Positions 13,843 through 62,279 are shown, counted from the first letter of the stretch. The stretch is 64,000 nucleotides of DNA from Bacteroidaceae bacterium (GCA_017650105.1 JAGCFO010000039.1:2571-66570), one strand, 5' to 3'. Numbers and translations are program-made. The notes: generated by a model from the letters alone, not told the origin.

Positions 13843-13927
13843 GAAAAAAAATTTTTCCCTTCTTCATACGGCGATATGAAGAAAGAAAAAATTTTTTTGG
13901 AGAAGGAATAATTTCGGCTCGTTCTCC
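13843..13927. repeat. 21-bp-phased GAAGAAGG-core repeat family, locus A (inverted arrangement) in the divergent PUL / T9SS-cluster control region
   Basis: A8T5-CCCTTCTTC-ATACGGCGATAT-GAAGAAAG-A6T7-GGAGAAGG-AATAATTTCGGCT-CGTTCTCC. Degenerate units (for example CCCTTTTTCGGAAAA, GATGAAAAGGGG on the other strand) continue leftwards to about 13600. Confidence 0.85.
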
Positions 13928-14092
13928 CCACTCTTTCGGCTCTGCGACAATACGCCCGAATTCCTCTCTCCAACCTTAGCGCAACGGGAGTTGAAAGGCA
14001 ATAAAATCCTCTTATTTGCTCTGATAATGCCCTTACCTTATTAAATTAAGGTTTTTTTAGCCTCGCTTTGTGGTAATTCAGATTTTTTGCCG

Positions 14093-14100
14093 TACATTTG
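14093..14100 (+). promoter_or_regulatory. Candidate -7 box TACATTTG for the GH43 gene
   Basis: 30 nt upstream of the ATG at 14131. A TTTG (-33-like) lies at 14067-14070. Confidence 0.5.
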
Positions 14101-14130
14101 CAACAGCAATACAAAAAACTCTAACACTAC

Positions 14131-16263
14131 ATGAAACAGCATCTCACGCTTCTGCTTCTCCTCGTATGCAGCGTTGCCACCCTCTGGGCCGACGACAATC
14201 CTGCCACGTATAGCAACCCCATCATCGGGCGAAGTCTCCCCGACCCTACGGTCATACGCGCTCGCGACGGCATGTTCTACCTCTATGCCACCGAGGACAT
14301 CTATAACACCCCCATCTACCGCTCGCCCGACCTGGTGCATTGGGACTTCGTGGGTACCGCCTTCACAAACAGCACGCGCCCCAAGAAAATCGACGGCAAC
14401 CTTTGGGCTCCCGACATCAACTACATCAACGGCAAATACGTGCTCTACTACAGCAAGTCGAAGTGGGGAGGAGAATGGGAATGCGGCATCGGAGTAGCCA
14501 CGTCGGACTACCCCGAAGGGCCTTTCACCGACGTTGACTCCCTGTTTACCAGCAAAGGCATCGGCGTGCAGAACAGCATCGACCCCTTCTATATCGAGGA
14601 TGAGGGGAAGAAATACCTCTTCTGGGGCAGTTTCCGCGGCATCTACGCCATCGAGCTGAGCGACGACGGACTCAGCATTAAGGAGGGAGCCGAGAAGGTG
14701 AAGATTTCAAGCGGCAGAACCGAAGCCACATACATCATCAAGCACGACGACTACTTCTACCTCATAGGCTCCGCAGGCTCGTGCTGCGAAGGGGCAAAGA
14801 GCACATACAACCTGCTGATGGCGCGCTCGAAAAACATCCTGGGGCCCTATGTGGACCGAACGGGAAAGAAAGCCCTCAACGACGGCTTCTCGCAGCTCCT
14901 GGTAGGCAGCACGAAGGTGATAGGCCCGGGACATAACGCCGAGTTTATGGAGGACGATAACGGCACATTCTTCATCATCTATCACGGCTATGAGGCAAGC
15001 GACCCCGACGGAGGGAGAAAAGTGTTTATGGACCCAATCTCCTGGGACCGAGGCGGTTGGCCTACCGTGCGCAACATGCGCCCTTCGGTTTCGGCCAACG
15101 CGCCTGTGTTCAAGCACAACGTTGAGGGGGAACGGGCTGTAGGCAATCCTGTGCCGCTGGGCGACCCTTTCATCCTCAACGATGAGGGAACCTACTATGC
15201 CTACGGCACTCACGACGAGACAGGCATCGAGGTGTACCGCTCGACAGACCTTGCAAACTGGACTTTCTGCGGGCTGGCAATCGACACCATCGGAAGCAAG
15301 GCATCGGGCAACTTCCGCTCGCCCGAGATACACAAGACGGGCAGCCAGTTTATCCTCTATTACACAGCCGACAACCACATCTACGCTGCCACAGGCTCCA
15401 CCCCTACGGGCCCTTTCGTTGAGCAGGACGGCTACCTGCTCCATCCCGTAATAGCCAACGAAGCTTGCTCCGACGTCACCCGCTTCACAGATGACGACGG
15501 GCTGATGTACCTCTACTTCGTGCGCATCCAAAACGGCATCAGCTCCGTCTGGACCTGCAATCTTGAGGAAGACGGTCTCACGGCAGCTAAACCTCTGCGC
15601 ACCGTCTCTTCTCCTTCCCAAATATGGGAAAGGGAAAAGGGCTCCGTCAACTGCGCACCCTTCGTGCTGAAAAAAGACGACAGATATTTCTTCACTTATA
15701 CTGGAAACGAAGAGTCGAGCCTCAACTGCGGCATCGGATATCTCTATTCCACAACCCTCACGCGCGGCTTGCGCAAATATGGCTACAACCCCATCTGGCA
15801 AAAGCCCGAAGGACTCGGACTAACCGGCACCGCTCACGCCTCGTTCTTCTATAGTCCCGACAGCACTCTCTACTGTGTGTTTGATGCCCACAACAGGGAG
15901 GACAACATCTACCCTCGCCTGATGTACATCAGCACCGCAACTGTTTCTGACGGGGAGCTTCACATCAGCACCGACAACATCATCTCCCCCGTAATCAGCG
16001 GAGACGAGTCGTCGGGAATCTCTCCGATTAAAGCCGACACATATATCATAAGCCCGAAGCGTATTCGCGACTCCTTCACCGTTGAGAGCCTCTCAGGAAA
16101 GCCATTCAGGTGGCAAGTCGTAAGCTTGCACGGGCAAGTAATGAAATCTGGAAACTCTGAAGGAAGCATACGTGTTTCCCTTGCCGACACGCCGCAGGGA
16201 ATGTATATCATCCGACTCACAAACAGCGACGGAGAGTATAGCGAAAAGGTAATCCACATCTAA
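14131..16263 (+). CDS. Tandem GH43-type glycoside hydrolase (two five-bladed-propeller modules) with T9SS C-terminal sorting domain
   Basis: Signal peptide. The first module starts NPIIGRSLPDPTVIRARDGMFYLYATED and the second starts GNPVPLGDPFILNDEGTYYAYGTHDE. The C-terminus QGMYIIRLTNSDGEYSEKVIHI resembles a Por secretion tail. Confidence 0.85.
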   Translation: MKQHLTLLLLLVCSVATLWADDNPATYSNPIIGRSLPDPTVIRARDGMFYLYATEDIYNTPIYRSPDLVHWDFVGTAFTNSTRPKKIDGNLWAPDINYINGKYVLYYSKSKWGGEWECGIGVATSDYPEGPFTDVDSLFTSKGIGVQNSIDPFYIEDEGKKYLFWGSFRGIYAIELSDDGLSIKEGAEKVKISSGRTEATYIIKHDDYFYLIGSAGSCCEGAKSTYNLLMARSKNILGPYVDRTGKKALNDGFSQLLVGSTKVIGPGHNAEFMEDDNGTFFIIYHGYEASDPDGGRKVFMDPISWDRGGWPTVRNMRPSVSANAPVFKHNVEGERAVGNPVPLGDPFILNDEGTYYAYGTHDETGIEVYRSTDLANWTFCGLAIDTIGSKASGNFRSPEIHKTGSQFILYYTADNHIYAATGSTPTGPFVEQDGYLLHPVIANEACSDVTRFTDDDGLMYLYFVRIQNGISSVWTCNLEEDGLTAAKPLRTVSSPSQIWEREKGSVNCAPFVLKKDDRYFFTYTGNEESSLNCGIGYLYSTTLTRGLRKYGYNPIWQKPEGLGLTGTAHASFFYSPDSTLYCVFDAHNREDNIYPRLMYISTATVSDGELHISTDNIISPVISGDESSGISPIKADTYIISPKRIRDSFTVESLSGKPFRWQVVSLHGQVMKSGNSEGSIRVSLADTPQGMYIIRLTNSDGEYSEKVIHI

Positions 16264-16347
16264 AAGAAAGCAAATTCAGAAAAGAAACAGAGAGCACCTA
16301 TTCATAAAATAAAAAAGGAGATTTTTTGCTATTCAAGAAAAATCACC

Positions 16348-16355
16348 TATTTTTG
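16348..16355 (+). promoter_or_regulatory. Candidate -7 box TATTTTTG for the 881-aa protein gene
   Basis: 43 nt upstream of the ATG at 16399. Confidence 0.45.
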
Positions 16356-16398
16356 CCACAAGAAAACAATTTATTCACTCACTTATAAAAAACCGCTT

Positions 16399-19044
16399 AT
16401 GAGAAAAAATTTACTTCTTTTATGTCTGGGAGTAGTTGCCTTGAGTGCAAGCGCCCAGATGATGGATTCTCCTTGGAAGGGTACCGTTCTTCCAGAAACA
16501 GGAGGAACCTATTACCTCTACAATGTTGAATCGGGTTTGTGGCTCCAGAACAACCGCAAGATTCAGGACGACTGGACCACTCGCGCACAGGTAGGCTTAC
16601 ACGGCTTCGACATTAAGGTGATTCCCATAGAGGGCGGCTTCCAACTTGACCCCCGCTTCGGACACAACCACAGTATCAATGCCAATCTTGATCAGGGCTA
16701 CTTAGACACCGAACGTGAAGTTTCCGCTTGGTCTTTCGTTGCTCTGCCTCCTGATGGTTACGATGCTTCTAACATGTACACTATCGAAGCCATCGACGGT
16801 GCCGTGCTGTTGGGTGTTGACCTCGGAGATGATGAAATGACTACTACTCTCTCCTACGATCCCAGCTGCCCCAACGTATCGTGGCAGCTCGTTTCCAAAG
16901 AGGAACGTCTGGCAGCTTTGGCAAACGCCAGCGAAGACAATCCTATGGATGCCACTTGGCTCATCGACGACTGGGACTTTGCTAATCAGAACGAGCGCAA
17001 CGCCAGCTGGAAGAGCACCCTTTCGCACAACGCATATAATCAAGGCTATCCTGCAAACCGCGCTTTTGAAAGCTGGAATGGTTCTGTAGGTGAATTTGCT
17101 CAGACCATCACCGGCTTGCCCGATGGTAGATACGGCCTTACACTGCAGGGATACTATCGCGATGGTAGCACGGGAGGCGTTGGAAGCAAGCACGTTGAAG
17201 GCACTGAGGAAATCCGAGCCTATTATTTCGCTAACTCCGTTAAGCATCCGCTCATGTCGATCTGCGAAAACGGCGTTACCGAGCCTATCGAAGGTGTCTT
17301 CCCTGTTGAGGTAGAAGGCGGATACTTCCTTCCTGGAGATGGAGGTAGCGCTCTTCCGAATGCATCTAACTCTTTCTTCCTCGATTTCTATTGGAACGAG
17401 GAAATCTTCGTTACTGTAGCAGGCGGAACACTCAAGATAGGTGTAGGCAAAGACAGTGGTGTGGGTGACGACTGGACTGTATTCGACAACTTCAAGCTCA
17501 CCTACTACGGCGCATACGTTGACATCGATGAATTGCTTGCCGACCTGGGTGACCTTATCACCGAGGTGGACGACTTCGAGGGCCTCAAGCCTGGATTCCT
17601 CGAGCAAGCTCTGGCTCAGGCCAATGACGCCCTTAACAGCACCGATGCTGCTGTCATCGGCACTGCTTTCAACAACCTCAACGAAAAGTTCACTGTTGTT
17701 AAGGCTGCTCAGAACAACATGAAGAACTTTGTTGCCACCGTAGCCCTCTGCCAGCAAGAAGCAGCCGCAGGCTCAGATCTTGCTAAAGCTATTACCAGCA
17801 CTCAGGCTATCTATGACAACGCTACCACCACCGACGAATATGCTCAAGCCCTCAACACTCTTCAGATTGCCCGCAGGGTTAACGCTGCCGAGCGCGAAGA
17901 GAACTATTGGGCAGGACACGAGCCTGAGCTGGGTCAGAAGTACTATTTCTATAATGTGGGCGAAAAGCGCTATCTCTGCGGAGGTGACGACTGGGGCGCA
18001 CACGCTGCCCTCGGCATCCCAGGCATCGAGATTCAGCTCGAAGAGGGTAACGTTGCCGGATTCCGCCTCAACACCTTCCTCAATAACGGAGGCGACAGCC
18101 AGTATCTGAACTACGGAGGCTATATGGACACCGGAGGCAACGACTGGATGTTCGTTGAAGTAGGCAACGGAGTATACAATATCGTACGTGCCGAAGATCT
18201 TACAATCAGCTTGGGCTATCGTCCCGGCACCTATTGCCGTGTGGACACAGATATGCCCGACCTTGCCGACCCACGCAATCAGTGGATCCTCGTCACCCGC
18301 GAAGACCGTTACGAACACCTCGCAGACGCTACTCCTTCTAACCCGGCTGACGCATCGTTCCTCATCGGAATGCCAAACTTCAGTCAGCGTGAGAACCTCG
18401 AAGAATCCGGTTGGTACTTCGGCGCAGGAAGCATCTGGGGACGCGGCAGCAACTATCCCGATTTCGTATATGAATGCTACAGCACTCCTTACTTCGAAAT
18501 GAACCAACTCGTTACTGATCTCCCGTTGGGCAACTACGAAGTATCCTGTCAGGGTTACTATCGTGAAAGCAATCATGAGGGACAGGCAGCCATCTTGGCT
18601 GAAGGAGGAGAGGCTCTGCGTGCCGCTCTGCTGTATGCTAACGAGGGTGAAGTGGAGATGATGAACATCACCGACGAAGCAGACAAAGCTCCCGGTATGG
18701 GCGAGCTCGGCTCTGCAGAATATCCTCACGACTATCCCAAGTGGGTTTACGAAGCTACCAACTTCTTCCAGTGTGGACTTTACAAGAATGCCGTTAACTG
18801 CACCGTTGACGCCTCCGGCGAATTGTTCCTCGGTGTAGGTAAGGACTACGAATCTGATGCAGACTGGGTTGTTGTCGACAACTTCCGCATCAAGTACTTC
18901 GGCGACGGAACAGGCATCAAGGATGTCATCAATGATAAACCCGTTCAGAACGGAAAGATCTATAACCTCATGGGCGTGGAAGTAACAACTCCAGCTGAAG
19001 GCACCATCTATATCCGCGACGGAAAGAAGTATATGAAGAAGTAA
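16399..19044 (+). CDS. Secreted protein of unknown function: two copies of a roughly 350-aa (trefoil-like + jelly-roll-like) module separated by a helical linker, with a T9SS CTD-like tail
   Basis: Signal peptide MRKNLLLLCLGVVALSASAQ. The internal repeat shows in YYLYNVESGLWL vs YYFYNVGEKRYL, LPDGRYGLTLQGYYRDGS vs LPLGNYEVSCQGYYRESN, and DDWTVFDNFKLTYYG vs ADWVVVDNFRIKYFG. The tail is GKIYNLMGVEVTTPAEGTIYIRDGKKYMKK. Confidence 0.8.
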   Translation: MRKNLLLLCLGVVALSASAQMMDSPWKGTVLPETGGTYYLYNVESGLWLQNNRKIQDDWTTRAQVGLHGFDIKVIPIEGGFQLDPRFGHNHSINANLDQGYLDTEREVSAWSFVALPPDGYDASNMYTIEAIDGAVLLGVDLGDDEMTTTLSYDPSCPNVSWQLVSKEERLAALANASEDNPMDATWLIDDWDFANQNERNASWKSTLSHNAYNQGYPANRAFESWNGSVGEFAQTITGLPDGRYGLTLQGYYRDGSTGGVGSKHVEGTEEIRAYYFANSVKHPLMSICENGVTEPIEGVFPVEVEGGYFLPGDGGSALPNASNSFFLDFYWNEEIFVTVAGGTLKIGVGKDSGVGDDWTVFDNFKLTYYGAYVDIDELLADLGDLITEVDDFEGLKPGFLEQALAQANDALNSTDAAVIGTAFNNLNEKFTVVKAAQNNMKNFVATVALCQQEAAAGSDLAKAITSTQAIYDNATTTDEYAQALNTLQIARRVNAAEREENYWAGHEPELGQKYYFYNVGEKRYLCGGDDWGAHAALGIPGIEIQLEEGNVAGFRLNTFLNNGGDSQYLNYGGYMDTGGNDWMFVEVGNGVYNIVRAEDLTISLGYRPGTYCRVDTDMPDLADPRNQWILVTREDRYEHLADATPSNPADASFLIGMPNFSQRENLEESGWYFGAGSIWGRGSNYPDFVYECYSTPYFEMNQLVTDLPLGNYEVSCQGYYRESNHEGQAAILAEGGEALRAALLYANEGEVEMMNITDEADKAPGMGELGSAEYPHDYPKWVYEATNFFQCGLYKNAVNCTVDASGELFLGVGKDYESDADWVVVDNFRIKYFGDGTGIKDVINDKPVQNGKIYNLMGVEVTTPAEGTIYIRDGKKYMKK

Positions 19045-19070
19045 AAAAACTTTATTCCTTCTACATATGA

Positions 19071-19106
19071 GAATATCGAGGCTCCAAAAGCCCCGATATT
19101 CTTTTT
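19071..19106 (+). terminator. Intrinsic terminator after the 881-aa protein gene
   Basis: GAATATCGAGGC, tccaaaa, GCCCCGATATTC, then TTTTT. 12-bp stem with one mismatch. Confidence 0.7.
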
Positions 19107-19138
19107 ATAATTGACTTGTGAAATCCAAAGATTATCCC

Positions 19139-19146
19139 TACTTTTG
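19139..19146 (+). promoter_or_regulatory. Candidate -7 box TACTTTTG for the 1475-aa fusion gene
   Basis: 28 nt upstream of the ATG at 19175, and downstream of the terminator at 19071-19106. Confidence 0.5.
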
Positions 19147-19174
19147 CAAACCAAAAACATAAACTCAGTTATTC

Positions 19175-27278: not shown

Positions 27279-28049
27279 ATGATGAAAAGACTATTCATGA
27301 CGATGGCCGTCGTGATGAGCGCAGCCATAGCCCTCGCTGAGGGAGATGTTACGAAAGAGAAGTTCAAACCCTTCTATACCCGCGAAGAGGCTCCTCACCT
27401 CGAAAACGTGATACCCGCACCTCCTACGCTCGTCGACCCTCTATTCTTCAACGACTGGGCACAGTTCCAATGGGGTCTTTCCGTGCGTGACAGCGAACGT
27501 GGCAAACAAGCTGTGGAAGACGCACACATCAACGCTACCTACTTCATGAAGCGCTATAGCGAGGCTACTGACATCGAGTTGACACCAGAAACCCATCCCG
27601 AGCTGTTCCGCCTCTTCTCTCGCCTTCATCTCACCGAGCAACAGGCAGGCGCTAGCGCCAAACTCTATTTCCAACGCGTACGCCCCTACCAGCAGTACAA
27701 GGAGCCTTCTGCGGTACCTGACCATGAGAATCCCACCGATTTTACGAGCTACCCCTCGGGGCATACCCACGCCTCCTGGTTAGTGGGACTGACACTTGTC
27801 ACCCTTGAACCCGAACACACCGAGCAGATTATGAAGATTGCCTACGAGTTGGGGCAGAGCCGAGTCATCGTGGGCTTCCACTATCAAAGCGACGTCGATA
27901 TGGGACGCATTGCCGGCAGCATTACTTTCGCACGTGTGATGGCAGAGCCTGAGTTCCAGAAGCAATACGAAAAGGCAAAGAAAGAGTACGAAAAAGTCAG
28001 AAAGGAACACGAGAAAGCCAAAAAGGAGTTCGGTAGGAAAAAGCGGTAA
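27279..28049 (+). CDS. Class A (PAP2 family) acid phosphatase with lysine/glutamate-rich C-terminal tail
   Basis: Signal peptide. PAP2 motifs KLYFQRVRPY, SYPSGHTHASW and SRVIVGFHYQSDVDMGR. Tail KAKKEYEKVRKEHEKAKKEFGRKKR. Confidence 0.85.
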   Translation: MMKRLFMTMAVVMSAAIALAEGDVTKEKFKPFYTREEAPHLENVIPAPPTLVDPLFFNDWAQFQWGLSVRDSERGKQAVEDAHINATYFMKRYSEATDIELTPETHPELFRLFSRLHLTEQQAGASAKLYFQRVRPYQQYKEPSAVPDHENPTDFTSYPSGHTHASWLVGLTLVTLEPEHTEQIMKIAYELGQSRVIVGFHYQSDVDMGRIAGSITFARVMAEPEFQKQYEKAKKEYEKVRKEHEKAKKEFGRKKR

Positions 28050-28217
28050 GAATCTGCCCAGCCCACCCTCGTGAATCACTAGCGCACTCATATTCATCGC
28101 CTCACACTAATTCCTTGTTACATCTTCATACGACTCCACTCAGCATATCCATTCAAGGAAATTCCATCTTTTCGTCCAACGCGTCACTTGATGTAATCAG
28201 CTTAACACAATTGAGTG

Positions 28218-28595
28218 ATGAAACACATCGTTTTTTCATTTCTTCTAATCGGTTTGCTTCTATGCTCTTGCAGTAGAAACAAAGCGAATCCGAATCAGTC
28301 AACTCACATTTCGGCAGAAATGGCATACGAAGGAGTAAAAAAATATTGTCATAGCACTTACGACTGGGGTATAGCAGAAAACAATCCTTCCATCATGTAT
28401 GTAGAGATGGGAGATGAAACCGAATCTGAGTACAAGGTGATGTTCCGCAGTTATACGGGTACCTTCGTGTATTTCTATGTAGACAAGTCAAGTGGTGTGA
28501 CAAGAATGGTAGAATGTGTTCCAGCACTAGGCATTAAAAGCGACGCCGGAACCATTAATATCTTTGATTTCCTGGAAAACAGACAACCAAACTAA
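28218..28595 (+). CDS. Small lipoprotein, unknown function
   Basis: MKHIVFSFLLIGLLLCSCSRNK lipobox (ATG at 28218; the track start at 28215 is a GTG). No family recognised. Confidence 0.6.
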   Translation: MKHIVFSFLLIGLLLCSCSRNKANPNQSTHISAEMAYEGVKKYCHSTYDWGIAENNPSIMYVEMGDETESEYKVMFRSYTGTFVYFYVDKSSGVTRMVECVPALGIKSDAGTINIFDFLENRQPN

Positions 28596-28602: not shown

Positions 28603-28685
28603 TTTTTTCCTTCTCGAAAAAATTTTTTTCCTTCTCCAGCGCGCGAGATGAAGAAAGAAAAAATTTTTTTGGAGAAGGGAAAAAA
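28603..28685. repeat. Repeat family locus B: two reverse units + AGCGCGCGAGAT + two forward units, forming an imperfect inverted repeat with about 35-bp arms
   Basis: T6CCTTCTCGA6T7CCTTCTCC AGCGCGCGAGAT GAAGAAAGA6T7GGAGAAGGGA6. Lies between convergent stops at 28595 (+) and 28805 (-). Confidence 0.9.
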
Positions 28686-28804
28686 CCGAGAGGAGCCAAC
28701 CTTATAATTTTGGCACCCTATATCATCATTTCCGATATACCAAATATCCGCAGAGAGTCTCTGCGGATATTTGGTTTTCCTCTGTCGTAGCCGTATAAAA
28801 AAGA

Positions 28805-32535: not shown

Positions 32536-32634
32536 TAATTATGAGTTAAGAAAAAAGATTTTTGGAGAACAAATATCGCGATATGAAGAAGGGAAAAAAT
32601 TTTTTCGAGAAGGGAAAAATAATTATGAGTTAAG
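32536..32634 (+). repeat. Repeat family locus C (3 units) bounded by a perfect 15-bp direct repeat TAATTATGAGTTAAG
   Basis: TAATTATGAGTTAAG (32536-32550), then AAAAAAGATTTTT GGAGAAC AAATATCGCGATAT GAAGAAGG GAAAAAATTTTTT CGAGAAGG GAAAAA, then TAATTATGAGTTAAG (32620-32634). Lies between the lptC stop and the CorC-family start. Confidence 0.9.
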
Positions 32635-32643
32635 CAAAAGGAA

Positions 32644-33336
32644 TCATTCGTTCTTCTTATTAACAGGGATGTCAGCCGGCTCGGGTGCCGCGATAGGCGC
32701 TCCGCTCGTTTCATCAGGAACCACGATGTTGGAGTCGGCAGGGATTTCGTTTATCTCAGGCTCCTTGTTGAGGTCTTCAATGGGGAATGTTCCCTGCGTG
32801 CGACGGATGATGTAGTTGGTAAACTGCTGGTTGCTCTCGAAGCCTATTCCTGTGATGATACGGTCTTTCTGCTGGATGCGGATGAACAGATCAGACCAAA
32901 CGCGCTCGGTGTTCTGGTTCCAGAAGAGCAGCTCAGTGTCGAAGATTTCTCCCTGCAGGTTCTCGATGTGCACGTTGTGGCGCAGTTCCCATAGTTTAGT
33001 CCTCTCAAAATAGTATGCCGTATCGGCTTTTACCGTAGCGTCGATGTGAAGGCTGTCGCTGAAGCGCTCAAGGTAGATGCCGTGCTCGAATTTCCACTGG
33101 GGAGGATCGAGTTGGTCAAAGATTTCCCACTCTTCAGTTACAATCCTGTAGCGCACTACCCCCGAGTCGGAGATAGCCGTATTCACGTTGTAGGTTATCA
33201 TTCCGGGCACGGAGTCTCGATTGTGGATAGCATCGGTGTACTGCTTCTTGTCGCGGCTACAGGAACAAAAGAGCATAGCAATCACGCTTACCGTGACTGC
33301 TATGCAATGAAGACTGTATGTTCTGTTAAGACTCAA
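32644..33336 (-). CDS. lptC: LptC-like LPS export periplasmic protein (lipoprotein-anchored)
   Basis: Lipobox LFCSCSRD. The size and the beta-jellyroll-like repeat pattern (KADTAYYFERTKLWELRHNVHIENLQGEIFDTELLFWNQ) fit LptC. Its position upstream of a CorC-family gene is typical of Bacteroidales. Confidence 0.7.
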   Translation of the reverse strand: MSLNRTYSLHCIAVTVSVIAMLFCSCSRDKKQYTDAIHNRDSVPGMITYNVNTAISDSGVVRYRIVTEEWEIFDQLDPPQWKFEHGIYLERFSDSLHIDATVKADTAYYFERTKLWELRHNVHIENLQGEIFDTELLFWNQNTERVWSDLFIRIQQKDRIITGIGFESNQQFTNYIIRRTQGTFPIEDLNKEPEINEIPADSNIVVPDETSGAPIAAPEPADIPVNKKNE

Positions 33337-36114: not shown

Positions 36115-36330
36115 TAGTTGTCTGAAACCTGTTTCCTTCGTTTGTACAAACGCGAAAATTTTTGCAAAGATGATACTTTTTGCTGAATTGAGCAAAAGAA
36201 GATGTTTAAAAAACCTATAAAGAGATTGAAAACTTTTTAATTTCCGCTCCTTTTCTGTCCGTCGGATGCGGAAGAAGCGTCAAAAAAGAGGGATATTTTG
36301 CCGTACGGGATTGGCTGTTTGTCCACACGA

Positions 36331-36412
36331 TTTTTTTCGTTCTCCAGAAAAAATTATTTGTTCTCCAAAAAAATTTTTCCCTTCTTCATATCGCCGTATT
36401 TGTTCTCCAAAA
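36331..36412 (-). repeat. Repeat family locus D (4 units, reverse orientation)
   Basis: T7 CGTTCTCC AGAAAAAATTATTT GTTCTCC A7T5 CCCTTCTTC ATATCGCCGTATTT GTTCTCC AAAA. Its reverse complement closely matches locus C (GGAGAACAAATAYSGCGATATGAAGAAGGGAAAAA..TTTTT). Lies in a divergent intergenic region (36115-36576). Confidence 0.9.
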
Positions 36413-43732: not shown

Positions 43733-43815
43733 GAAGAAACCATCCGGCAATATGAAGAAGGAATATCCCAATATGAAGAAAGAAACGCGCGAGATGAAGA
43801 AGGGAAAAAAATTTA
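43733..43815 (+). repeat. Repeat family locus E (4 units), beginning 12 nt after the secA stop
   Basis: Cores GAAGAAAC (43733), GAAGAAGG (43754), GAAGAAAG (43775) and GAAGAAGG (43796) are spaced exactly 21 bp apart. Spacers: CATCCGGCAATAT, AATATCCCAATAT, AAACGCGCGAGAT, GAAAAAAATTTAT. Confidence 0.9.
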
Positions 43816-43910
43816 TGCTTTCTACATATTGCCGTATGCTCAAAGCATATTGAGAAACGAAAAGCAAACTATACAGCATCGGGCAATAAACAACTGAAAA
43901 GAGCAAGACG

Positions 43911-44957
43911 ATGAGAAAAAATGCCATCCTGAAAACCATTATCGTTTCGGCAGCACTGCTGCTGACGGGGGGCTGCATTGGCGTGAAATACGTCTCCATC
44001 GAGCAGTATGCCCCTCCGCGCTACCTGCTCCCGCCCGACGCTACCCGCATCGCCGTTCTCAACAATGTCGACTCGGCAAACATCTATGTGATAAACCCCA
44101 ACATCGAGGTGTGGCTTGCCGAAGGCGACAGCATTATGGAATACGTCGCACAGGCACTTGCCGACTCTGAGCTCTTCTCCGAAGTGATAGTGCTCGACAG
44201 CTGCATCTTCCCCAAAGGCAACACGGTAGCGCACTTCCTCACCCAGCAGGAAGTGCAGGAATACTGCAACATGCTGGGAGTCGACATCATCATGACGTGC
44301 GAATTCGGAGGCATCTCCACCTTTCGCAACTACAATTACGCAGGCCCTGTCACGTGGTTCAACCTTGAGTCAGACGAATACTTCCTCTTTGCCCACATCT
44401 ATGCGCCCACACGCAAAGATCCCTTCTACTCCCTCAAACTAGAGGAATCTTGGAGCAAGATGGTGGAGAGGAGAGAGAAAATACCAGAAGCCGTCCACGA
44501 AGCCCTGCCGCTGATAGGAGAAGCCAGCGTGAAGTACTTTTTGCCCTACTGGGATTTGCGTGAGCGCTCCTTCTACTGGAGCACCAATTACAACTTGCGC
44601 GAGGCTACCATCAGCGTCAAGGAGGGCGACTGGGATACCGCCTATTCATATTGGCAGAAATACGGAAAAAGCAGGAAAGCGCGGCGCCGACTCATCTCGT
44701 GCTACAACCAAGCGCTCTACTACGAGATGCAGGACAGCCTCGATCAGGCTTTCAACATGCTGCGCGAAGCAAAGAGCTACGTTACCGACACAACGTCTCT
44801 CGACAGTGCGCAAATCAAGGCTTGGGGTACGATGGGCTTAGATTACACTGGTGCCGACGACGATATGCTCACCGACTACCAGCGCATCCGCAAATACGAG
44901 CAAATACTTACCGAACGAAAAGCTGAAATAACGAAACTAAATCTTCTGGAACCATGA
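43911..44957 (+). CDS. Hypothetical lipoprotein with C-terminal TPR-like helical region
   Basis: MRKNAILKTIIVSAALLLTGGC lipobox. No family recognised. Its stop overlaps the next start (ATGA). Confidence 0.65.
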   Translation: MRKNAILKTIIVSAALLLTGGCIGVKYVSIEQYAPPRYLLPPDATRIAVLNNVDSANIYVINPNIEVWLAEGDSIMEYVAQALADSELFSEVIVLDSCIFPKGNTVAHFLTQQEVQEYCNMLGVDIIMTCEFGGISTFRNYNYAGPVTWFNLESDEYFLFAHIYAPTRKDPFYSLKLEESWSKMVERREKIPEAVHEALPLIGEASVKYFLPYWDLRERSFYWSTNYNLREATISVKEGDWDTAYSYWQKYGKSRKARRRLISCYNQALYYEMQDSLDQAFNMLREAKSYVTDTTSLDSAQIKAWGTMGLDYTGADDDMLTDYQRIRKYEQILTERKAEITKLNLLEP

Positions 44958-45424
44958 AACTCAGTCTTCAATCAGAGTCGATTCTCGACAGCCTTTTCCA
45001 AAACTTGGCAGACAAGTTTTCTTCCTCACAGTCCGAGCCAGCCCTCACCGACTTTCATCTGCAGCCTTTGCGCGAAACGGGCGAGCTGAATGTCTACGAC
45101 GATGACGACAACCTGCTGTGCCACACGACTATAGTTGAGTGGGCCGACGAATCGTCCGACGCGGATGAGGATGATGCCGACGCTTTCTACGACGATGCCG
45201 CGCGGCATCTACGCCAATCCCTCGCGCGGGTGGATGCCGAAGGTGCGCTTCAGCAGCTCAACGTGTGGAAACCCTACTCTTTCGTGCTGGTCGACGACGA
45301 ACGCGAGGTGGTGTGCGAGCTTCTTCTTGTCGACGACGACACACTGCTTGTCAACGACACCCTTCTGCAAGGACTCGACGAAGAACTGAACGATTTCTTC
45401 GAGCAACTGCTGGGGGAAGATTGA
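44954..45424 (+). CDS. Hypothetical, very acidic cytoplasmic protein (156 aa)
   Basis: Start translationally coupled to the upstream gene. Rich in D/E (DESSDADEDDADAFYDDA) with no signal peptide. A hairpin terminator follows at 45524-45558. Confidence 0.55.
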   Translation: MKLSLQSESILDSLFQNLADKFSSSQSEPALTDFHLQPLRETGELNVYDDDDNLLCHTTIVEWADESSDADEDDADAFYDDAARHLRQSLARVDAEGALQQLNVWKPYSFVLVDDEREVVCELLLVDDDTLLVNDTLLQGLDEELNDFFEQLLGED

Positions 45425-45523
45425 ACCCGTTCGGAGGAGAGTTCTTCTACAGAGAAGAAAGTTACGCTAGCGAGAGGCTTGCAGAAGGCAGACAATGCAT
45501 TTAGTTTCAGAATAATAGAGGAA

Positions 45524-45558
45524 GTGCCCCTACCCACAAAGGAGGGGCACTTTGCTTT
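45524..45558 (+). terminator. Intrinsic terminator after the lipoprotein / acidic-protein operon
   Basis: GTGCCCCT, acccacaaagg, AGGGGCAC, then TTTGCTTT. Confidence 0.6.
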
Positions 45559-45690
45559 CGCGGAGATTCCCTGTTTGCTCCAAAAGAAGCGTTGCCTCAA
45601 ACTGATTCTCCGTTAACGACAAAACGGAAATAACTCTTTGAGAAAAGCATTCAGCACAAAGATAAGCAAGCTTTGTCAACAAAGACGTAT

Positions 45691-45803
45691 GTAGAGAGGA
45701 AAACGAATTATGAAGAAGGGAAAAAAATTTTTCGAGAAGGAAAAAAAATTTTTGGAGAAGGAAACGCGCGAGATGAAGAAGGGAAAAAATTTTTTGGACA
45801 AAG
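45691..45803 (+). repeat. Repeat family locus F (5-6 units)
   Basis: Cores at 45712, 45733, 45754, 45775 and 45796 (exact 21-bp steps), with a degenerate GAGAGGAA at 45694. Spacers are A7T5, A8T5, AAACGCGCGAGAT and A6T6. Lies in the 632-bp intergenic region upstream of the TetR-RND operon. Confidence 0.9.
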
Positions 45804-45947
45804 CATATCAGATTTTGCCTTACACATATTGCAGAAAAGGCTGAGGAAAACTGATGGTAAAAGCCTCTGAGTGCGTAATTGAGAAAGCACCCTCGCACGC
45901 GAACTGTAAACATATCTTAAATATGCGCGTCGGGCGCAACAAACAAA

Positions 45948-45977
45948 GGGAAACTTTTTGCTATTAAAAAGTTTCCC
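45948..45977 (+). promoter_or_regulatory. Perfect 12-bp inverted repeat overlapping the -33 region of the TetR-RND operon promoter: candidate TetR operator
   Basis: GGGAAACTTTTT (45948-45959), gctatt, AAAAAGTTTCCC (45966-45977). TTTG at 45957-45960 and TAATTTTG at 45980-45987 form a Bacteroidota -33/-7 pair with a 19-nt spacer. Confidence 0.55.
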
Positions 45978-45979
45978 TG

Positions 45980-45987
45980 TAATTTTG
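45980..45987 (+). promoter_or_regulatory. Candidate -7 box TAATTTTG for the TetR-TolC-MFP-RND operon
   Basis: 69 nt upstream of the ATG at 46057 and immediately after the 12-bp inverted repeat. Confidence 0.5.
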
Positions 45988-54686: not shown

Positions 54687-54688
54687 AA

Positions 54689-57600
54689 ATGAAAAAGAAA
54701 AAATTCTTTTTCCTTCTTCTTAGCGCGATATTCCTTCTTCTCGCACTCTGTTTTGTTCTCCACACGCGTACGGTGAAGCTCAGCAAGAGCGAGCTGATGG
54801 ATAAGATTAAAGGAGGTTGGGCAGGACAGACGATAGGCTGTGCCTACGGAGGTCCTACCGAGTTCTGCTATCGCGGCGTGATGATTCCCGACGAGACACC
54901 CATTGTCTATCCCGAGCATCACCTGCAGCATTTCTTCGACCGTTCTCCCGGGCTCTACGACGACATCTATATGGACCTAACCTTCGTCAACGTCCTGTCC
55001 CGTCTGGGACTTGATGCGCCCGTCGACTCCGTTGCACACGCCTACGCTTATGCCCCCTATCCCCTCTGGCACGCCAACCAAGCTGCGCGATACAACATCC
55101 AGCACGGCATCCTTCCTCCCGCCTCGGGGCATTGGCGCAACAATCCTCATGCCGACTGCATCGACTATCAGATCGAGGCCGACTACGCAGGACTCATGTC
55201 GCCCGCTATGCCCAACGCTGCATCGGCTCTCAGCAACCGCATTGGGCACATCATGAACTATGGTGACGGCTGGTACGGAGGCGTCTTCGTGGGAGCGATG
55301 TATGCGCTTGCCTTCGTCGAGAACGATGTGGAAGCCATCGTCACAAAAGCGCTGAAGACAATTCCCCGCAACACTAAGTTCCACAGTTGCCTGAGCGACG
55401 TCATCAGATGGTACAAGGAAGACCCTACCGACTGGAAGCGTGCCTGGCAGCTCTACAACGAGCGTTGGAGCGACGATGTGGGCTGTCCCGAGCTGGTGCT
55501 TGCACCGGGCAACATCGACGCCACTATGAACTCCGCCTACGTAGCAATAGGCTTGCTCTTCGGTCAGGGCGACTTCGGGCGTACGCTTGAGATATCCACC
55601 CGCTGCGGGCAAGACTCCGACTGCAACCCCTCGACGGCAGGAGGCGTGCTCGCTACGATGCTTGGCTACAGCCACATCCCCGAGGAGTGGATGCCCAACG
55701 TGCGCGAAGTGGAAAATCGCCCCTTTGCCTACACTGACATCTCGCTCAACAGCGCCTACAGCATGACTTACGAGCTTGCCCTCCAGCAGATTATCCGCAA
55801 CGGGGGACGTGTGAGCGAAGACGCCGTACGCATCAAGGCGCAGAAACCTCGTGCCGTTCAGTGGGAGCAGGGCTTCCCCGACATGCACCCCGTGCTGCTT
55901 ACCGAAAATGTCCTCCTCTCCGACACCACACAGGCTGAACCCCTGACGCTCTCCTTCGAGGGAAAGGGAATCGCTGTCTATGGCCAGCTGAGTTGTCCCG
56001 ACAAAGACTACTCCGCAGAGTTGGAAGTCAGCGTCGACGGAAAGACCGACCGAGTTGTCAACCTCCCTGCCGACTTCCTTCAGCGCACGGCCGACTGCCT
56101 CTACTGGAACTACGACCTCCCCGAGGGCTCGCACACCGTCTCCTTCCGGCTTCTCAATCCCCGCTCTGGCGCTGAAGTAAGAGCCTACAAGGTTATCCGA
56201 TATCTGTCTGGTTCTTCCGTGCAGGAAGCGAATAAGGAGGATGTGCTGCAGCACGTCAACCTCTTCATCGGCACCGCTAACGACTATGGGCAGATGGCTC
56301 CCGGGGCATGCATGCCCTACAGTCAGATACAAGTGTCGCCCGACAGCAAGCCGCGTCAGCATCCCGGCTACGACTATGAGGTTGCCCGCATCTCGGGCTT
56401 CAGCATCAACCGCCTCTCTGGCGTGGGCGGCAGCGGCTGTGGAGGCAACGTGTCGCTGATGCCCGATGCGACAGGTAACGATGTGCAGCTGCTGAAATCA
56501 ACCGAGCAGGCCTCTCCCGGCTACTATGGTGTGCAGCTTACAAACGGTGTGTCGTTTGCCGCTACTGCCGACCGACGTATGGCAATCGAGCGTTTCACGT
56601 TCCCCTCACCTGCAAGCGCCGTTCTGCTGCTCAACCCCTCCTCTGCCTTCGATCGAGTACACAGCGCTTCATTCCGTCAGACGGACGACTGCGTAGGGCA
56701 AGGGTACATCGATTGTGCCAACACCTGTGGGCGGGGAAGCTATCATCTCCATTACCGGCTCTTCTCTTCGGCGCCTTTCGCCTTGGAAGAGCAAGCCGAC
56801 GGCATGAAGAAACTGTCGTTCCCCGCGCTCACCGACAATACAGTCGAAATACGCATCGTGGTTTCTACGGGATTGGCACAGGAGCTGGATGCCCTCCCCG
56901 AGTCCGACGTCTGGCGCACGACCTTCGACGAGAAAGTCGTACAGGCCCGTGAAGCTTGGCGCCAGCTGCTCTCTGCCGTTGAGGTGGAGGGAGGCTCTGC
57001 CGATGAGCGCACACTCTTCTACACCTCGCTCTACCGCACCTTCCACAGCCCCTTCCAGGTTACCGACAGCACTATGCGCCACTATCTGGGCACCGACGGC
57101 AGTGTGCACGAGGCACGCGACTTTACCTACTACAGCTCTTGGTCGTTGTGGGACACCTATCGCACCAAGTTCCCCCTGATAACGCTGCTCGACGCACAGC
57201 GCTCGGCCGACATTATGCAGTCGCTCGCGACCCTCTATATGACGGGGAAGAAAGACTGGAGCACAGCCTTCGAGTGTGTGCCTACCGTGCGCACCGAGCA
57301 TGCTGTCGCCACTCTTCTCGATGCTTACCGGCAGGGTGTCTCTATCCCCAACCTACGCGAAGCCTATCCCGGGATGACGAAGGAGGTTGAAGGACTCTCG
57401 CTGAAGAGCCCCGACCAGTGTCTTGAGGCTGCAGGCGACTTCTGGGCGCTGGGGCAGCTGGCACAGGAACTGGGCATCAAGGACGATGCTGCGCGATGGG
57501 CACGCCGCGGGGAGGAAATCTTCGACAGCATCTGGCCTCAGGAGTTTCAGACCATCGACAGCTCATTTGTCAAGATGCGCGGAAACGGACTCTATCAGGG

Positions 57601-58186
57601 CACCCGTTGGCAGTATCGATGGGGAGCACCCATGTATCTCAACCGCATGACAGCCCTTGTGGGCAAGAAAGAGCTGGCACACGAGTTGCTGACATTCTTC
57701 GAGCAGCAGCTTTACAATCAGGGCAACGAGCCCGACATCCACGTACCCTTCCTCTTCGGGCGACTGGGCATGCCTGCGCAGACAGGCCTCACCGTGCGTC
57801 CGCTGGCAACCGAGGTGGTTACCCACCGCTACGGGGGAAACGATGCCTATCCCGTTCCCTGGGAGGGATGCGCCTTCGTGAACGCTCCTCGCGGCTATGC
57901 ACCCGAGATGGATGAGGACGACGGAGCTATGAGCGCGTGGTATGTGTTTGCCAGCATGGGACTCTATCCCTTAGTGGTGGGCGAGGCACAGTATGAGGTT
58001 TTCTCACCCCTCTTCGACAAAGTGACGCTTCATCTCAACGGCAACGACGTCGTCATCAGCACTCAGGGACGCAAGGATGTCAACCAGCCGCTGAAGAGCG
58101 TCACATGGAACGGGAAGCGTCTGCGCCATTTCCAGATATCCGTCTCGGAGCTCAAGAAGGGCGGCAAGCTTGTGATGCACTATTAA
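54689..58186 (+). CDS. Fusion protein: N-terminal ADP-ribosylglycohydrolase-family domain + beta-sandwich + C-terminal GH92-like alpha-mannosidase module
   Basis: TM/signal anchor MKKKKFFFLLLSAIFLLLALCF. ARH-like KIKGGWAGQTIGCAYGGPTEF ... GQDSDCNPSTAGGVLATMLGY. GH92-like VNLFIGTANDYGQMAPGACMPYSQIQVSPDS, GNEPDIHVPFLFGRLGMPAQT and EMDEDDGAMSAWYVFASMGLYPLVVGEAQYEVFSPLFDKVTLHL. The track start at 54683 is a GTG; an ATG lies at 54689. Confidence 0.85.
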   Translation: MKKKKFFFLLLSAIFLLLALCFVLHTRTVKLSKSELMDKIKGGWAGQTIGCAYGGPTEFCYRGVMIPDETPIVYPEHHLQHFFDRSPGLYDDIYMDLTFVNVLSRLGLDAPVDSVAHAYAYAPYPLWHANQAARYNIQHGILPPASGHWRNNPHADCIDYQIEADYAGLMSPAMPNAASALSNRIGHIMNYGDGWYGGVFVGAMYALAFVENDVEAIVTKALKTIPRNTKFHSCLSDVIRWYKEDPTDWKRAWQLYNERWSDDVGCPELVLAPGNIDATMNSAYVAIGLLFGQGDFGRTLEISTRCGQDSDCNPSTAGGVLATMLGYSHIPEEWMPNVREVENRPFAYTDISLNSAYSMTYELALQQIIRNGGRVSEDAVRIKAQKPRAVQWEQGFPDMHPVLLTENVLLSDTTQAEPLTLSFEGKGIAVYGQLSCPDKDYSAELEVSVDGKTDRVVNLPADFLQRTADCLYWNYDLPEGSHTVSFRLLNPRSGAEVRAYKVIRYLSGSSVQEANKEDVLQHVNLFIGTANDYGQMAPGACMPYSQIQVSPDSKPRQHPGYDYEVARISGFSINRLSGVGGSGCGGNVSLMPDATGNDVQLLKSTEQASPGYYGVQLTNGVSFAATADRRMAIERFTFPSPASAVLLLNPSSAFDRVHSASFRQTDDCVGQGYIDCANTCGRGSYHLHYRLFSSAPFALEEQADGMKKLSFPALTDNTVEIRIVVSTGLAQELDALPESDVWRTTFDEKVVQAREAWRQLLSAVEVEGGSADERTLFYTSLYRTFHSPFQVTDSTMRHYLGTDGSVHEARDFTYYSSWSLWDTYRTKFPLITLLDAQRSADIMQSLATLYMTGKKDWSTAFECVPTVRTEHAVATLLDAYRQGVSIPNLREAYPGMTKEVEGLSLKSPDQCLEAAGDFWALGQLAQELGIKDDAARWARRGEEIFDSIWPQEFQTIDSSFVKMRGNGLYQGTRWQYRWGAPMYLNRMTALVGKKELAHELLTFFEQQLYNQGNEPDIHVPFLFGRLGMPAQTGLTVRPLATEVVTHRYGGNDAYPVPWEGCAFVNAPRGYAPEMDEDDGAMSAWYVFASMGLYPLVVGEAQYEVFSPLFDKVTLHLNGNDVVISTQGRKDVNQPLKSVTWNGKRLRHFQISVSELKKGGKLVMHY

Positions 58187-58248
58187 CACTCTTCCTATCC
58201 GAAAGACGCTGTGCGCTGTGCACCTTGATGCTTCGCTCCGCCGTCCAT

Positions 58249-59133: not shown

Positions 59134-59431
59134 TAAGCAAAAAACGTGACATCGTACATAAATCTACCCACCCCCCCAAAGCCTGTATGACAAATTCCCG
59201 TAAGAAAAGACTTTTGCGCTTAAGTTCTGTTCCAGGATGAGTCAGCGCAGTCTATGCCCTTGCTGCCCTATCGTTTGTTTGCGTTCTTTCTCCTTCGTGG
59301 GATAAAGGAGGGGAAGTGCCCGAGGGGGAGATGTCCCATCAGAGGGATTTAGCACCCCGATCGGCACAATTCAGTCAAGTTTGGCAAAATTGCTGCATTG
59401 CGCTGCAAAGTGCGCCTGGAGCTTGGGCTCC

Positions 59432-59497
59432 AACAAACCTGATAAAAGCTTACAAACCTGACAAGAGTTTACAAACCTGATGAAAGTTTAGAAACCC
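59432..59497. repeat. 19-bp tandem direct repeat, 3 full units + partial: (A/T)ACAAACCTGAYRARAGYT
   Basis: AACAAACCTGATAAAAGCT (59432-59450), TACAAACCTGACAAGAGTT (59451-59469), TACAAACCTGATGAAAGTT (59470-59488), TAGAAACCC (partial). The last units overlap the stop and final codons of the C69 dipeptidase gene. Confidence 0.85.
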
Positions 59498-61065: not shown

Positions 61066-61077
61066 ATTTAAGAAGGA

Positions 61078-61938
61078 TTATTTTGCTGAGATGCTGAATT
61101 GGAGGACTACTGGATAATGGTCTGATATGAAGGGCACTCCGTACGTCTTGTCACGCAGCACGCTGAAGCTGAGCGCCTTGCAGTCGCGGATGTAGATGTG
61201 GTCTATCATGTGCGCGGGCACGTTCTCATCCTTAAAGGCGTTGTAGGTGGAGCGGTTGTCGGTGACGGGGGCAATGTCGCGCGACGAGAGCAGGCCTGCC
61301 TCCTTCAGGGGGGCGAAGAAGGGCTCTGACGAATGGCTGTTCATATCGCCGCTGAGCACAACGGGTGTGCCTGCTGGCACTATCTGGCTGATGCGCTGAC
61401 AGATGAGCTTGATGGACTCCTGCCGTGCTGTGACGCCCACGTGGTCGAGATGGGTGTTGAAGTAGAAGATTTCCTTGCCCGACTTCTTATGCCTGAGGCG
61501 CACCCAGGTCACCGTGCGCTTGCAGGCGGCATCCCACCCCAGCGTAGGCTCTTCAGGAGTCTCGCTGAGCCAGAAAGTGCCGCTATCAAGAAGCTTGAAG
61601 GCTCGCTTACGGTAGTATATGGCCATACACTCGCCCTCGCTCTTGCCGTCGTCACGTCCCACGCCCACGTGCCCGAAGGTGCGGCGCGTGTGCTTGTTGA
61701 AGAAGGCCATCTGATCGGGCAACGCTTCCTGGAGGCCCAGCAAGTCGGGCTTCTCCACCTTCAGCAACGTCAGAGATGCCTTCTTGCGGTGCTCCCAGTC
61801 GTTCACGCCGTCTTTGGCTCCGCTATTGCGGACATTGAAACTCATCACACTCAGCTCCTGCGCAAAGGACGGCACAGCGATGCAAGCCAAGAGCACCGCG
61901 AGGAGCAGTTTACGTATACAGTCACTCAGATTTCTCAT
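61078..61938 (-). CDS. Endonuclease/exonuclease/phosphatase (EEP) family protein, secreted
   Basis: LSVMSFNVRNSG..., LLGLQEA, SGDMNS and ISDHYPVVLQF motifs. Its stop is 12 nt from the C69 gene start. Confidence 0.85.
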   Translation of the reverse strand: MRNLSDCIRKLLLAVLLACIAVPSFAQELSVMSFNVRNSGAKDGVNDWEHRKKASLTLLKVEKPDLLGLQEALPDQMAFFNKHTRRTFGHVGVGRDDGKSEGECMAIYYRKRAFKLLDSGTFWLSETPEEPTLGWDAACKRTVTWVRLRHKKSGKEIFYFNTHLDHVGVTARQESIKLICQRISQIVPAGTPVVLSGDMNSHSSEPFFAPLKEAGLLSSRDIAPVTDNRSTYNAFKDENVPAHMIDHIYIRDCKALSFSVLRDKTYGVPFISDHYPVVLQFSISAK

Positions 61939-62132
61939 AGCATTCGTTCTTTAATGATTCGGTTCAGCAAAGGTAAGCCGATTCTCCTACAGATGCAACA
62001 GAAAAGGAGGAAAAAAGCACCCTTCGAGCGATTTTTTCACGCGCATCGAGGCAGACAACCCACTATCCTACCCCATCCTGACGATTGAGCGGCAAAAGAT
62101 CTTCGCAAAACGGAGAGACTTTGCAGTTCTGT

Positions 62133-62279
62133 GAAGAAGGAAACGCGCGAGATGAAGAAAGAAGCGCGCGAGATGAAGAAGGAAACGCGCGAGATGAAGA
62201 AGGAAGCGCGCGGGATGAAGAAGGAAACACGCGGGATGAAGAAGGAAACACGCGGGATGAAAAAGGGAACGTTCGTAAA
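62133..62279 (+). repeat. Repeat family locus G: seven head-to-tail 21-bp units (147 bp)
   Basis: GAAGAAGGAAACGCGCGAGAT / GAAGAAAGAAGCGCGCGAGAT / GAAGAAGGAAACGCGCGAGAT / GAAGAAGGAAGCGCGCGGGAT / GAAGAAGGAAACACGCGGGAT (x2, identical) / GAAAAAGGGAACGTTCGTAAA. Lies in the divergent region between the EEP gene start (61938) and the ppiD start (62480). Confidence 0.95.

Follow-up and report, generated by a model that had tools for sequence, protein, structure and literature searches.

Dispersed arrays of a 21-bp repeat unit in the intergenic DNA of an uncultured Bacteroidaceae species

The stretch of DNA analyzed here, referred to as the window, comprises 64,000 nucleotides of a genome deposited as Bacteroidaceae bacterium (GCA_017650105.1, JAGCFO010000039.1:2571-66570), and contains short tandem arrays of a 21-bp unit that are dispersed among its genes. 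The window encodes a type IX secretion system (T9SS) sorting domain, GldE, BamG, Lnb, and SusC/SusD, which place it in the Bacteroidota, and its SecA is identical to MBO7468212.1, an entry labelled 'MAG: Bacteroidaceae bacterium' (MAG, metagenome-assembled genome). Scaffold_204 of the ENA assembly ERZ28653882 has 0 differences from the window over 13.3 kb, and the same arrays recur, in unchanged positions, in ENA and Logan assemblies obtained from different samples. The entries MBO4590481.1, MBR5962956.1, and MBO4445181.1 come from species-mates. In total, the analysis drew on about 72 kb of host sequence and about 60 kb from relatives.

A first-pass annotation of the window had described seven intergenic loci, A to G, built of an 8-nt purine core followed by a 13-nt spacer, with the cores recurring at exactly 21 bp. 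Both observations hold. Reading the sequence at each of the seven ranges gives 21-bp units with a purine core and a 13-nt spacer (7/7), and when 21-nt rows are printed from the core start, each core stays in one column at all loci; an independent call by Tandem Repeats Finder (TRF) assigns a period of 21 to D, F, and G. The family extends beyond these loci, and its members are listed below with the scores, where relevant, of a position weight matrix (PWM) that was trained on 29 units, locus H, the pair at 19035-19064, locus I, and a locus in contig L121 being outside the training set, and used with a threshold of at least 18 bits.

Locus A, left unit: 13845-13865, minus strand, GAAGAAGG GAAAAATTTTTTT, inverted relative to the right part of the locus, PWM score 27.2 bits.
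Locus A, right part: 13878-13927, plus strand, two forward units with a tail that is an inverted degenerate core, CGTTCTCC.
Locus B, left part: 28603-28637, minus strand, two reverse-orientation units, beginning 8 nt past the stop of the open reading frame (ORF) 28215-28595.
Locus B, right part: 28650-28691, plus strand, two forward units.
Locus C: 32543-32655, plus strand, five in-register units (GAGTTAAG variant, GGAGAACA, GAAGAAGG, CGAGAAGG, GAGTTAAG) plus an inverted core.
Locus D: 36325-36408, minus strand, four units, separating the BamG and Lnb genes, which are divergent.
Locus E: 43733-43837, plus strand, four forward units and an inverted degenerate unit, CTTTCTAC ATATTGCCG.
Locus F: 45691-45837, plus strand, 5-6 units and an inverted degenerate core, GCCTTAC.
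Locus G: 62133-62279, plus strand, seven units, all of the CGCGCG spacer class, TRF period 21, 6.7 copies, score 210.
Locus H: 54699-54761, minus strand, three in-phase units (GGAGAACA, GAAGAAGG+AATATCGCGCTAA, GAAGAAGG+AAAAAGAATTTTT), PWM scores 24.4 and 17.6 bits.
Minimal member: 19035-19064, no single strand, one forward and one inverted unit, PWM scores 23.8 and 21.8 bits.
Locus I: positions 2646-2708 of contig L124, about 5 kb to the right of the window, with a trigger-factor gene on one side and a peptidase M6 gene on the other.

A further locus is found in contig L121, from another sample, beside a gene with a TonB-dependent-receptor-like N-terminus. The gene contexts of the seven original loci are those given in the first-pass annotation: A, D, and G are divergent, B convergent, C and E tandem, and F upstream of an operon. 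Locus A lies between glutaminase-like and arabinanase/T9SS genes; C is antisense to both of its neighbors, with its inverted core overlapping the stop of LptC; E begins 12 nt past the secA stop; and F precedes a TetR/OEP/MFP/RND efflux operon. Locus G is about 200 nt upstream of a PpiD-like gene, and its divergent context holds only if the 314-aa ORF 62702-63646 (minus strand), a shadow ORF, is replaced by the true PpiD/SurA_N-like gene on the plus strand, which runs from 62480 beyond the window end. The statement that no locus lies inside a gene is correct for these seven but not for the family, given that H occupies signal-peptide codons and the pair at 19035-19064 overlaps the stop codon of ORF 16399-19044. 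At A (on both sides), D, E, F, and G, the purine strand runs in the sense of the downstream gene; at C, I, and H it is antisense, and B lies between convergent stops. Loci B, C, E, and I, the pair at 19035, and a pair at position 14318 of contig L115, from a relative, begin 0-75 nt past a stop codon. Position is mixed, with some arrays in promoter regions, others after stops, and one within a gene.

In a profile of the 29 units, information peaks at the last T of the preceding spacer, at the core G[A/G]AGAAGG, and at the next three bases, [G/A]AA. The 8-nt core is indeed present, but the conserved part is the 12-nt consensus T|GRAGAAGGRAA. Information is low in the middle of the spacer because the spacers split into discrete classes, namely A5-8T5-8, AAACGCGCGAGAT, AATATCGCGATAT with its variants, and a few odd A/T-rich ones, the main palindromic types being A6T6, ATATCGCGATAT, and CGCGCG-centred. 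Loci carry 1-7 units in strict 21-bp register. At A and B, units meet head to head across a palindromic spacer, and an inverted degenerate core ends loci C (CGTTCTTC) and I (CCTTTCTC) as it does E, F, and the right part of A. Blocks of core plus spacer recur among different loci, including locus I and the locus in L121.

That the pattern exceeds chance is borne out by several counts. GARGAAGG-N13-GARGAARG has 6 matches in the window versus 0 in 100 dinucleotide shuffles, and the 29-nt two-unit pattern ATGAAGAARGRAAAAAWWTTTNNSGAGAA has 5 matches (loci A, B, C, D, and F) versus 0 in shuffles. With the PWM, 27 matches of at least 18 bits are obtained in the 64-kb window, and 25 of the 27 fall in the 7.6% of it that is intergenic (binomial P ~3e-26); at the same threshold, 843 kb of unrelated genomes contain 7 matches. 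The density is approximately one locus per 7 kb (~10 loci in 72 kb), and about one third of the longer intergenic gaps of the host hold 21-bp arrays.

Relatives were gathered through the flanking proteins and through spurious repeat-derived peptides. They comprise conspecific contigs (L118, L119, and L120 at ~96% identity, L114 at ~94%, and the short L123, L147, and L148), the syntenic contigs L115-L117 at ~80% nucleotide identity, and L145, whose ortholog of the locus H protein is 80% identical and which is assumed to come from the species of the ~80% relative or from a close one. Within the species, D, E, and H have the same sites and unit numbers, and locus D is identical at 84/84 positions in L118 and L119. 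At locus F, the window has an exact 21-bp unit that is missing from L118, L119, L120, and L114. Locus G has one 21-bp unit fewer in L123, and its middle units bear different spacer variants, although its unit numbers may be affected by collapse of short reads. In L115, locus E consists of one unit and the inverted tail versus four units in the window, a difference of 63 bp (3 units). These unit-number differences (F, G, and E) are always multiples of 21 bp, which provides the variation at orthologous loci that was to be looked for in relatives. Outside such indels, the arrays change at the pace of their surroundings: between the window and L118 (20 kb aligned), substitutions amount to 19/378 in arrays (5.0%), 64/1277 in other intergenic DNA (5.0%), and 621/18459 in coding sequence (CDS; 3.4%). 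The Logan contigs (k=31) L114:1, L147:1, and L148:1 end exactly inside arrays E and C (L147 and L148 within C), as would be expected of arrays whose stretches of 31 nt or more are repeated at other places in the genome.

The sister species is poor in units. The ~80% relative(s) have 2 PWM matches of at least 18 bits in 39 kb versus 27 in 64 kb, which makes the unit ~8-fold rarer; a single reverse-plus-forward pair is present at L115:14318-14370, and L145 (18 kb) has no match of even 15 bits. In the JGI metagenomes (241 million records), which do hold proteins of the sister species, the 29-nt A-type two-unit pattern gave 0 matches and a 24-nt B-type pattern gave 1 match, a coding look-alike. 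The A-type pattern also had 0 matches in IMG/VR. For the 18-nt pattern CGCGCGAGATGAAGAARG searched against genome contigs, the matches listed included only chance coding ones in high-GC genomes.

It is clear from these comparisons that the arrays gain and lose whole units in place, that units including their spacers are common to different loci, that substitutions accumulate at a neutral rate with no rule of orientation or position, and that the abundance of the family shifts rapidly between sister species. Because whole units, core plus spacer class, are common to several loci, common descent is indicated rather than convergent binding sites; and a neutral intergenic rate together with the lack of a fixed orientation to genes means that the arrays behave as selfish or neutral DNA and not as a conserved regulatory site. 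The loci are therefore probably members of one lineage-specific, non-coding, mosaic interspersed minisatellite family of an uncultured Bacteroidaceae species. Of the two interpretations offered in the first-pass annotation, it is the self-expanding minisatellite or mobile element that gains from the one-unit indels at F and G, the 63 bp at E, the shared units, the lineage restriction, and the neutral rate.

Growth and shrinkage by whole units in situ is a signature of slippage or unequal recombination, and turnover would thus proceed by replication slippage or by unequal recombination between tandem units. Blocks may be copied between loci by ectopic recombination, gene conversion, or some trans-acting enzyme, with the palindromic spacers possibly serving as axes from which inverted arrangements arise by template switching. 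The hairpins formed by inverted units just past stops (B, E, and 19035) would then be incidental transcript-end structures of the REP/BIME type (repetitive extragenic palindromic sequences and bacterial interspersed mosaic elements), and one array, H, appears to have been taken up into a coding region as a signal peptide.

Some observations weigh against the minisatellite family. The counts and strand statistics rest on a sample of about 72 kb of host and 60 kb of relatives. No pair of insertion and empty site was found among the relatives compared, so that movement between loci is deduced. At 96% identity the unit number is unchanged at 4/5 comparable loci, which indicates slow turnover. Array F is ~93% conserved in L114, versus ~60-65% in the 150-280 bp directly upstream; positions 45425-45704 of the window are ~60-65% identical to L114:1652-1912, and array F with everything downstream is ~93-94% identical. 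This step may mark a patch of recombination reaching as far as the array, or the array may have been homogenised; its conservation beside a diverged flank could also reflect selection on it. Finally, many neighbors are envelope or secretion genes (secA, bamG, lnb, lptC, ppiD, and tig), a fact that an interpretation of the loci as a regulon could exploit, although the sample is small. As a separate observation, the flank of F contains a terminator-like hairpin, GTGCCCCT...AGGGGCAC followed by TTT (window ~45525-45553), whose pairing is kept in L114 via changes on both arms (GTGTCCCC...GGGGACAC).

The arrays could instead be functional binding platforms, in which a sequence-specific protein sits on each asymmetric core, on one face of the helix given cores two turns apart, and cooperates along the array; the candidates would be nucleoid-associated proteins, regulators of the winged-helix or LytTR type, and whatever enzyme spreads the repeat. 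The strict 21-bp register, the far better conservation of the 12-nt core than of the spacer, the location of 6 of about 10 loci in promoter-containing regions (A, D, F, G, L121, and E), and the conservation of array F in L114 beside its strongly diverged flank are all consistent with such a role. The geometry also equals that of LytTR sites, which are 9-bp direct repeats, [TA][AC][CA]GTTN[AG][TG], spaced by 12-13 bp and found at one or a few promoters. In LytTR sites and iterons, a period of ~21-22 bp places proteins on one helix face, and only the recognised bases are conserved. Here, although the 21-bp geometry is shared, GRAGAAGG lacks the GTT signature and does not fit the LytTR consensus, and discrete spacer classes are common to loci, meaning that whole units have been copied and not just recognised bases. 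Loci also occur between convergent stops (B), after stops within operons (C and E), over a stop (19035), and in CDS (H). The absence of an orientation rule, the neutral substitution rate, the freely varying unit number, and the scarcity of units in a sister species with the same genes point in the same direction, and we consider binding platforms doubtful.

The three palindromic spacers are mutually unrelated, so that a single dimer could not read all of them; orientation and position are inconsistent as well, and the first-pass proposal of an array bound by a dimeric or nucleoid protein is conceivable but unsupported. The helical phasing, which was among the clues cited in the first-pass annotation, finds no backing in predicted DNA shape, as curvature calculated with a dinucleotide wedge model (Bolshoy parameters) is unremarkable. 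Phased A-tracts or bent DNA were rejected as the basis of the arrays, whose predicted curvature is not consistent: percentiles range from 66 to 99.8, and the means lie close to the median of the window. The strongest predicted curvature peaks of the window (62335-62370, 13784, and 45850-45985) adjoin G, A, and F without lying inside them, in promoter-proximal DNA rich in A/T runs. A Bacteroidetes -7 promoter element (TAnnTTTG) in the array tails was likewise discarded, since the TTTTGCC found near D, F, and G is not kept in L118. A more specific version, in which a lineage-specific DNA-binding protein (possibly a domesticated repeat-spreading enzyme) docks in phase on the arrays and tunes envelope/secretion and efflux genes, with unit number as a slow rheostat, is more doubtful still.

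Dispersal in intergenic DNA, and inverted units placed terminally or centrally in A, B, E, F, I, and L115:14318, are also what would be expected of classical MITEs (miniature inverted-repeat transposable elements), with unit-built terminal inverted repeats (TIRs), a transposase elsewhere in the genome, and the minisatellite as internal cargo; the BrickBuilt elements provide a precedent in Bacteroidales (PMC4596501). Inverted ends are nevertheless lacking at C (its terminal inverted core aside), D, and G, and no conserved leader or tail segments are seen. No target-site duplications were found at A or B, and the apparent one at C was rejected: its 15-bp flanking direct repeat, TAATTATGAGTTAAG, sits in the 21-bp register with GAGTTAAG at the core position and is therefore a variant unit of the array. 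There is no IS5-type TIR (GAGACCTTTGCA) near any locus and no transposase among the annotated window genes; the relatives compared offered no filled-versus-empty site pair; and the difference at E from the sister species is one of unit number, not of insertion. Classical MITEs are thus an unlikely explanation.

Action at the RNA level, by transcript-end hairpins (terminators, 3'-end stabilisers, or REP/BIME-like structures) or by purine-rich elements of the 5' untranslated region, draws on the very stable hairpins at some loci and on the six that begin 0-75 nt past a stop. The two halves of B form a ~85-nt near-perfect palindrome with a predicted folding energy of -36.4 (plus strand) and -39.1 (minus strand) kcal/mol (z -3.1 and -5.1; 0/200 shuffles as stable), those of A a 25-bp perfect hairpin with centre ATACGGCGATAT (minus strand z = -3.7), and unit 2 and the tail of E a hairpin with z -3.1, while that of the pair at 19035-19064 is weak (z -1.9). 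Only loci with inverted units (B, A, and E) fold better than shuffles; the direct arrays C, D, and F show no structure beyond them (z -0.7, -0.9, and +0.1). No U-tract follows the array hairpins, units occur in both orientations relative to transcription, and Rfam gives 0 matches at or above the gathering threshold in the whole window. An RNA role is accordingly quite improbable and would be at best a by-product of the inverted-unit subset.

The reading of the units as small heptad-repeat peptides, (MKKETRE)n or MKKGKNFFEKE..., is close to refuted: gene callers do predict 33-74-aa ORFs (MKKETREMKK...) at E, F, and G in several assemblies, with the frame kept across strains, but frame retention is automatic with units of 21 bp (7 codons), all five substitutions in the non-repeat tail of the F ORF relative to the 96%-identical L118 are non-synonymous (5/5), the peptide tails vary radically, such an ORF is missing from A, B, C, D, and I, where both strands bear units, and only 6 database 'proteins' match the repeat ORFs, all from orthologous loci. 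A conserved heptad-repeat protein gene, which the first-pass annotation had named as a finding that would overturn its interpretation, is thus not what underlies the units. The public entries P0010-P0015 (MKKETREMKKEAREMKK..., MKKGKNFFEKE...) are spurious translations of arrays.

Locus H is the one case in which units are translated within a genuine gene. Codons for MKKKKFFFLLLSAIFLLLALCFVLH lie on the reverse strand of its three in-phase units and form the signal-peptide region (54689-54770) of an ADP-ribosylglycohydrolase/GH92 protein of 1165 aa (54689-58186, plus strand). Gene calls from three assemblies, as well as alignment to homologs, back the start of this protein, and the locus is conserved in L118. 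In the 80%-identical ortholog (P0017, L145:9365), the signal peptide is of similar length and unrelated sequence (MKKKSLLLIILGVAAGMAALILA), and its DNA holds just one core-like CCCTTCTCC. The codons of ordinary signal peptides (AAA/AAG, then TTY/CTY) look much like reverse units, and the starts of other genes reach 15-17 bits; locus H goes well past such resemblance, with three in-phase cores and a 10/13 match to the ATATCGCGATAT spacer. This suggests that an array, or a tract converted from one, now serves as coding sequence at H. A unit of the A/T class reads as a signal-peptide start on both strands, forward as ATG-AAG-AAG (MKK) and reverse as KKFF.FF/FLLL, and the family could repeatedly give rise to new N-terminal signal peptides, of which H would be one. 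Locus H would be an example of repeat exaptation, and a weightier one if such cases recur genome-wide.

Among published systems, BrickBuilt of Porphyromonas gingivalis, a 23-nt tandem unit at 19 always-intergenic loci with 1 to ~23 units (Klein et al. 2015, PMC4596501), comes closest. It is limited to one species and its sister, its copy number varies by locus and strain, and spurious ORFs are predicted in it (PMC4596501). The two families share their occurrence in Bacteroidales, a short tandem unit without unique spacers, a dispersed and intergenic distribution, variable copy number, restriction to a lineage, and spurious ORFs. They differ in that the unit here is exactly 21 nt at every locus, that it forms a mosaic of spacer classes instead of homogeneous units, that inverted units are present, and that BrickBuilt, with 19 loci in 2.35 Mb, has a ~15-fold lower density. 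Membership in BrickBuilt was rejected, as its leader and tail with IS5-like TIRs (GAGACCTTTGCA / TGCAAAGGTCTC) are absent; a scan for these TIRs gave a single 1-mismatch match at 9594, in a gene and far from the loci, which is chance level.

Mycobacterial interspersed repetitive units (MIRUs) offer a second comparison, and some of their copies touch gene ends. They are 46-101-bp tandem repeats at 41 loci, of which 12 are variable (PMC3914561). Like the arrays described here, they form one interspersed intergenic minisatellite family with copy-number variation by whole units; their units are 2-5 times longer, belong to another phylum, show no sequence similarity, and lack palindromic spacer classes and inverted units.

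The mosaic, two-orientation, hairpin-forming, and post-stop character of the arrays is shared with BIME/REP of enterobacteria and with BOX of Streptococcus pneumoniae, which are small-alphabet mosaics found in both orientations, intergenic and often post-stop, that form hairpins, reach hundreds of copies in a genome, and are species-specific. REP units are imperfect palindromes with a GTAG head, linked to REP-associated tyrosine transposases (RAYTs), and BOX has the fixed order A-(B)n-C, whereas here the purine core is asymmetric, only the linker is palindromic, and units keep a strict 21-bp register. A self-folding palindrome of 20-40 nt, as in REP/BIME, was not found, the direct arrays C, D, and F folding like shuffles, and no RAYT (IS200/IS605-like) transposase is present among the annotated window genes. 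Rickettsia palindromic elements (RPEs), which are 100-150-bp palindromes inserted in many ORFs, resemble the family in that a dispersed repeat lies in frame within a protein-coding gene (locus H); here, this is a single case, at a signal peptide, and without a length change relative to the ortholog. Clustered regularly interspaced short palindromic repeats (CRISPR), in which repeats of 23-50 nt alternate with unique spacers of comparable length alongside cas genes, were rejected on the 21-bp period, on the recurrence of the 13-nt 'spacers' between loci, and on the absence of cas genes among the annotated window genes. Iterons, which form one cluster close to a rep/dnaA gene and an AT-rich region, were also rejected, given that ~10 clusters occur in 72 kb in every context, none beside a replication gene, and that no rep gene is present. 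The exclusion of CRISPR, iterons, and REP/BIME in the first-pass annotation, and of BrickBuilt as a described Bacteroidota MITE, is upheld. Literature searches on the core sequence and on intergenic repeats of Prevotella/Bacteroidetes returned no description of a 21-bp family. The family belongs to none of the named systems compared and is a new one among the interspersed repeats and minisatellites of bacteria in general.

If the minisatellite interpretation is true, the biology is ordinary, and the family is one more species-specific repeat beside REP/BIME, BOX, MIRU, and BrickBuilt. In L115, an unrelated hairpin repeat of ~86 bp (CCGACGGAGCAGCGAGCGGAAAG...CTTTCCCGAGTCGCGACGGAGG) occurs in 4-6 copies within 5 kb of intergenic DNA (9859-14526), and the window has no match to it even with 3 mismatches, so that sister Bacteroidaceae species each bear a different dominant intergenic repeat. 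In practice, the arrays fragment short-k assemblies of rumen and gut MAGs and seed spurious small ORFs (MKKETRE...) in protein databases, and they would be strain markers of the variable-number tandem repeat type for an uncultured lineage.

Other repeats in the window have sequences unrelated to the 21-bp family. Two period-21 repeats, at 27960-28027 (C-terminus of a PAP2 protein) and 45320-45368 (hypothetical ORF 44954-45424), are heptad-type coding repeats without sequence similarity to the intergenic units. A 19-bp tandem repeat, ACAAACCTGATAAAAGTTT, is present at 59433-59496 (3.4 copies, 84% matches), around and just past the stop codon of a peptidase C69 gene (59488).

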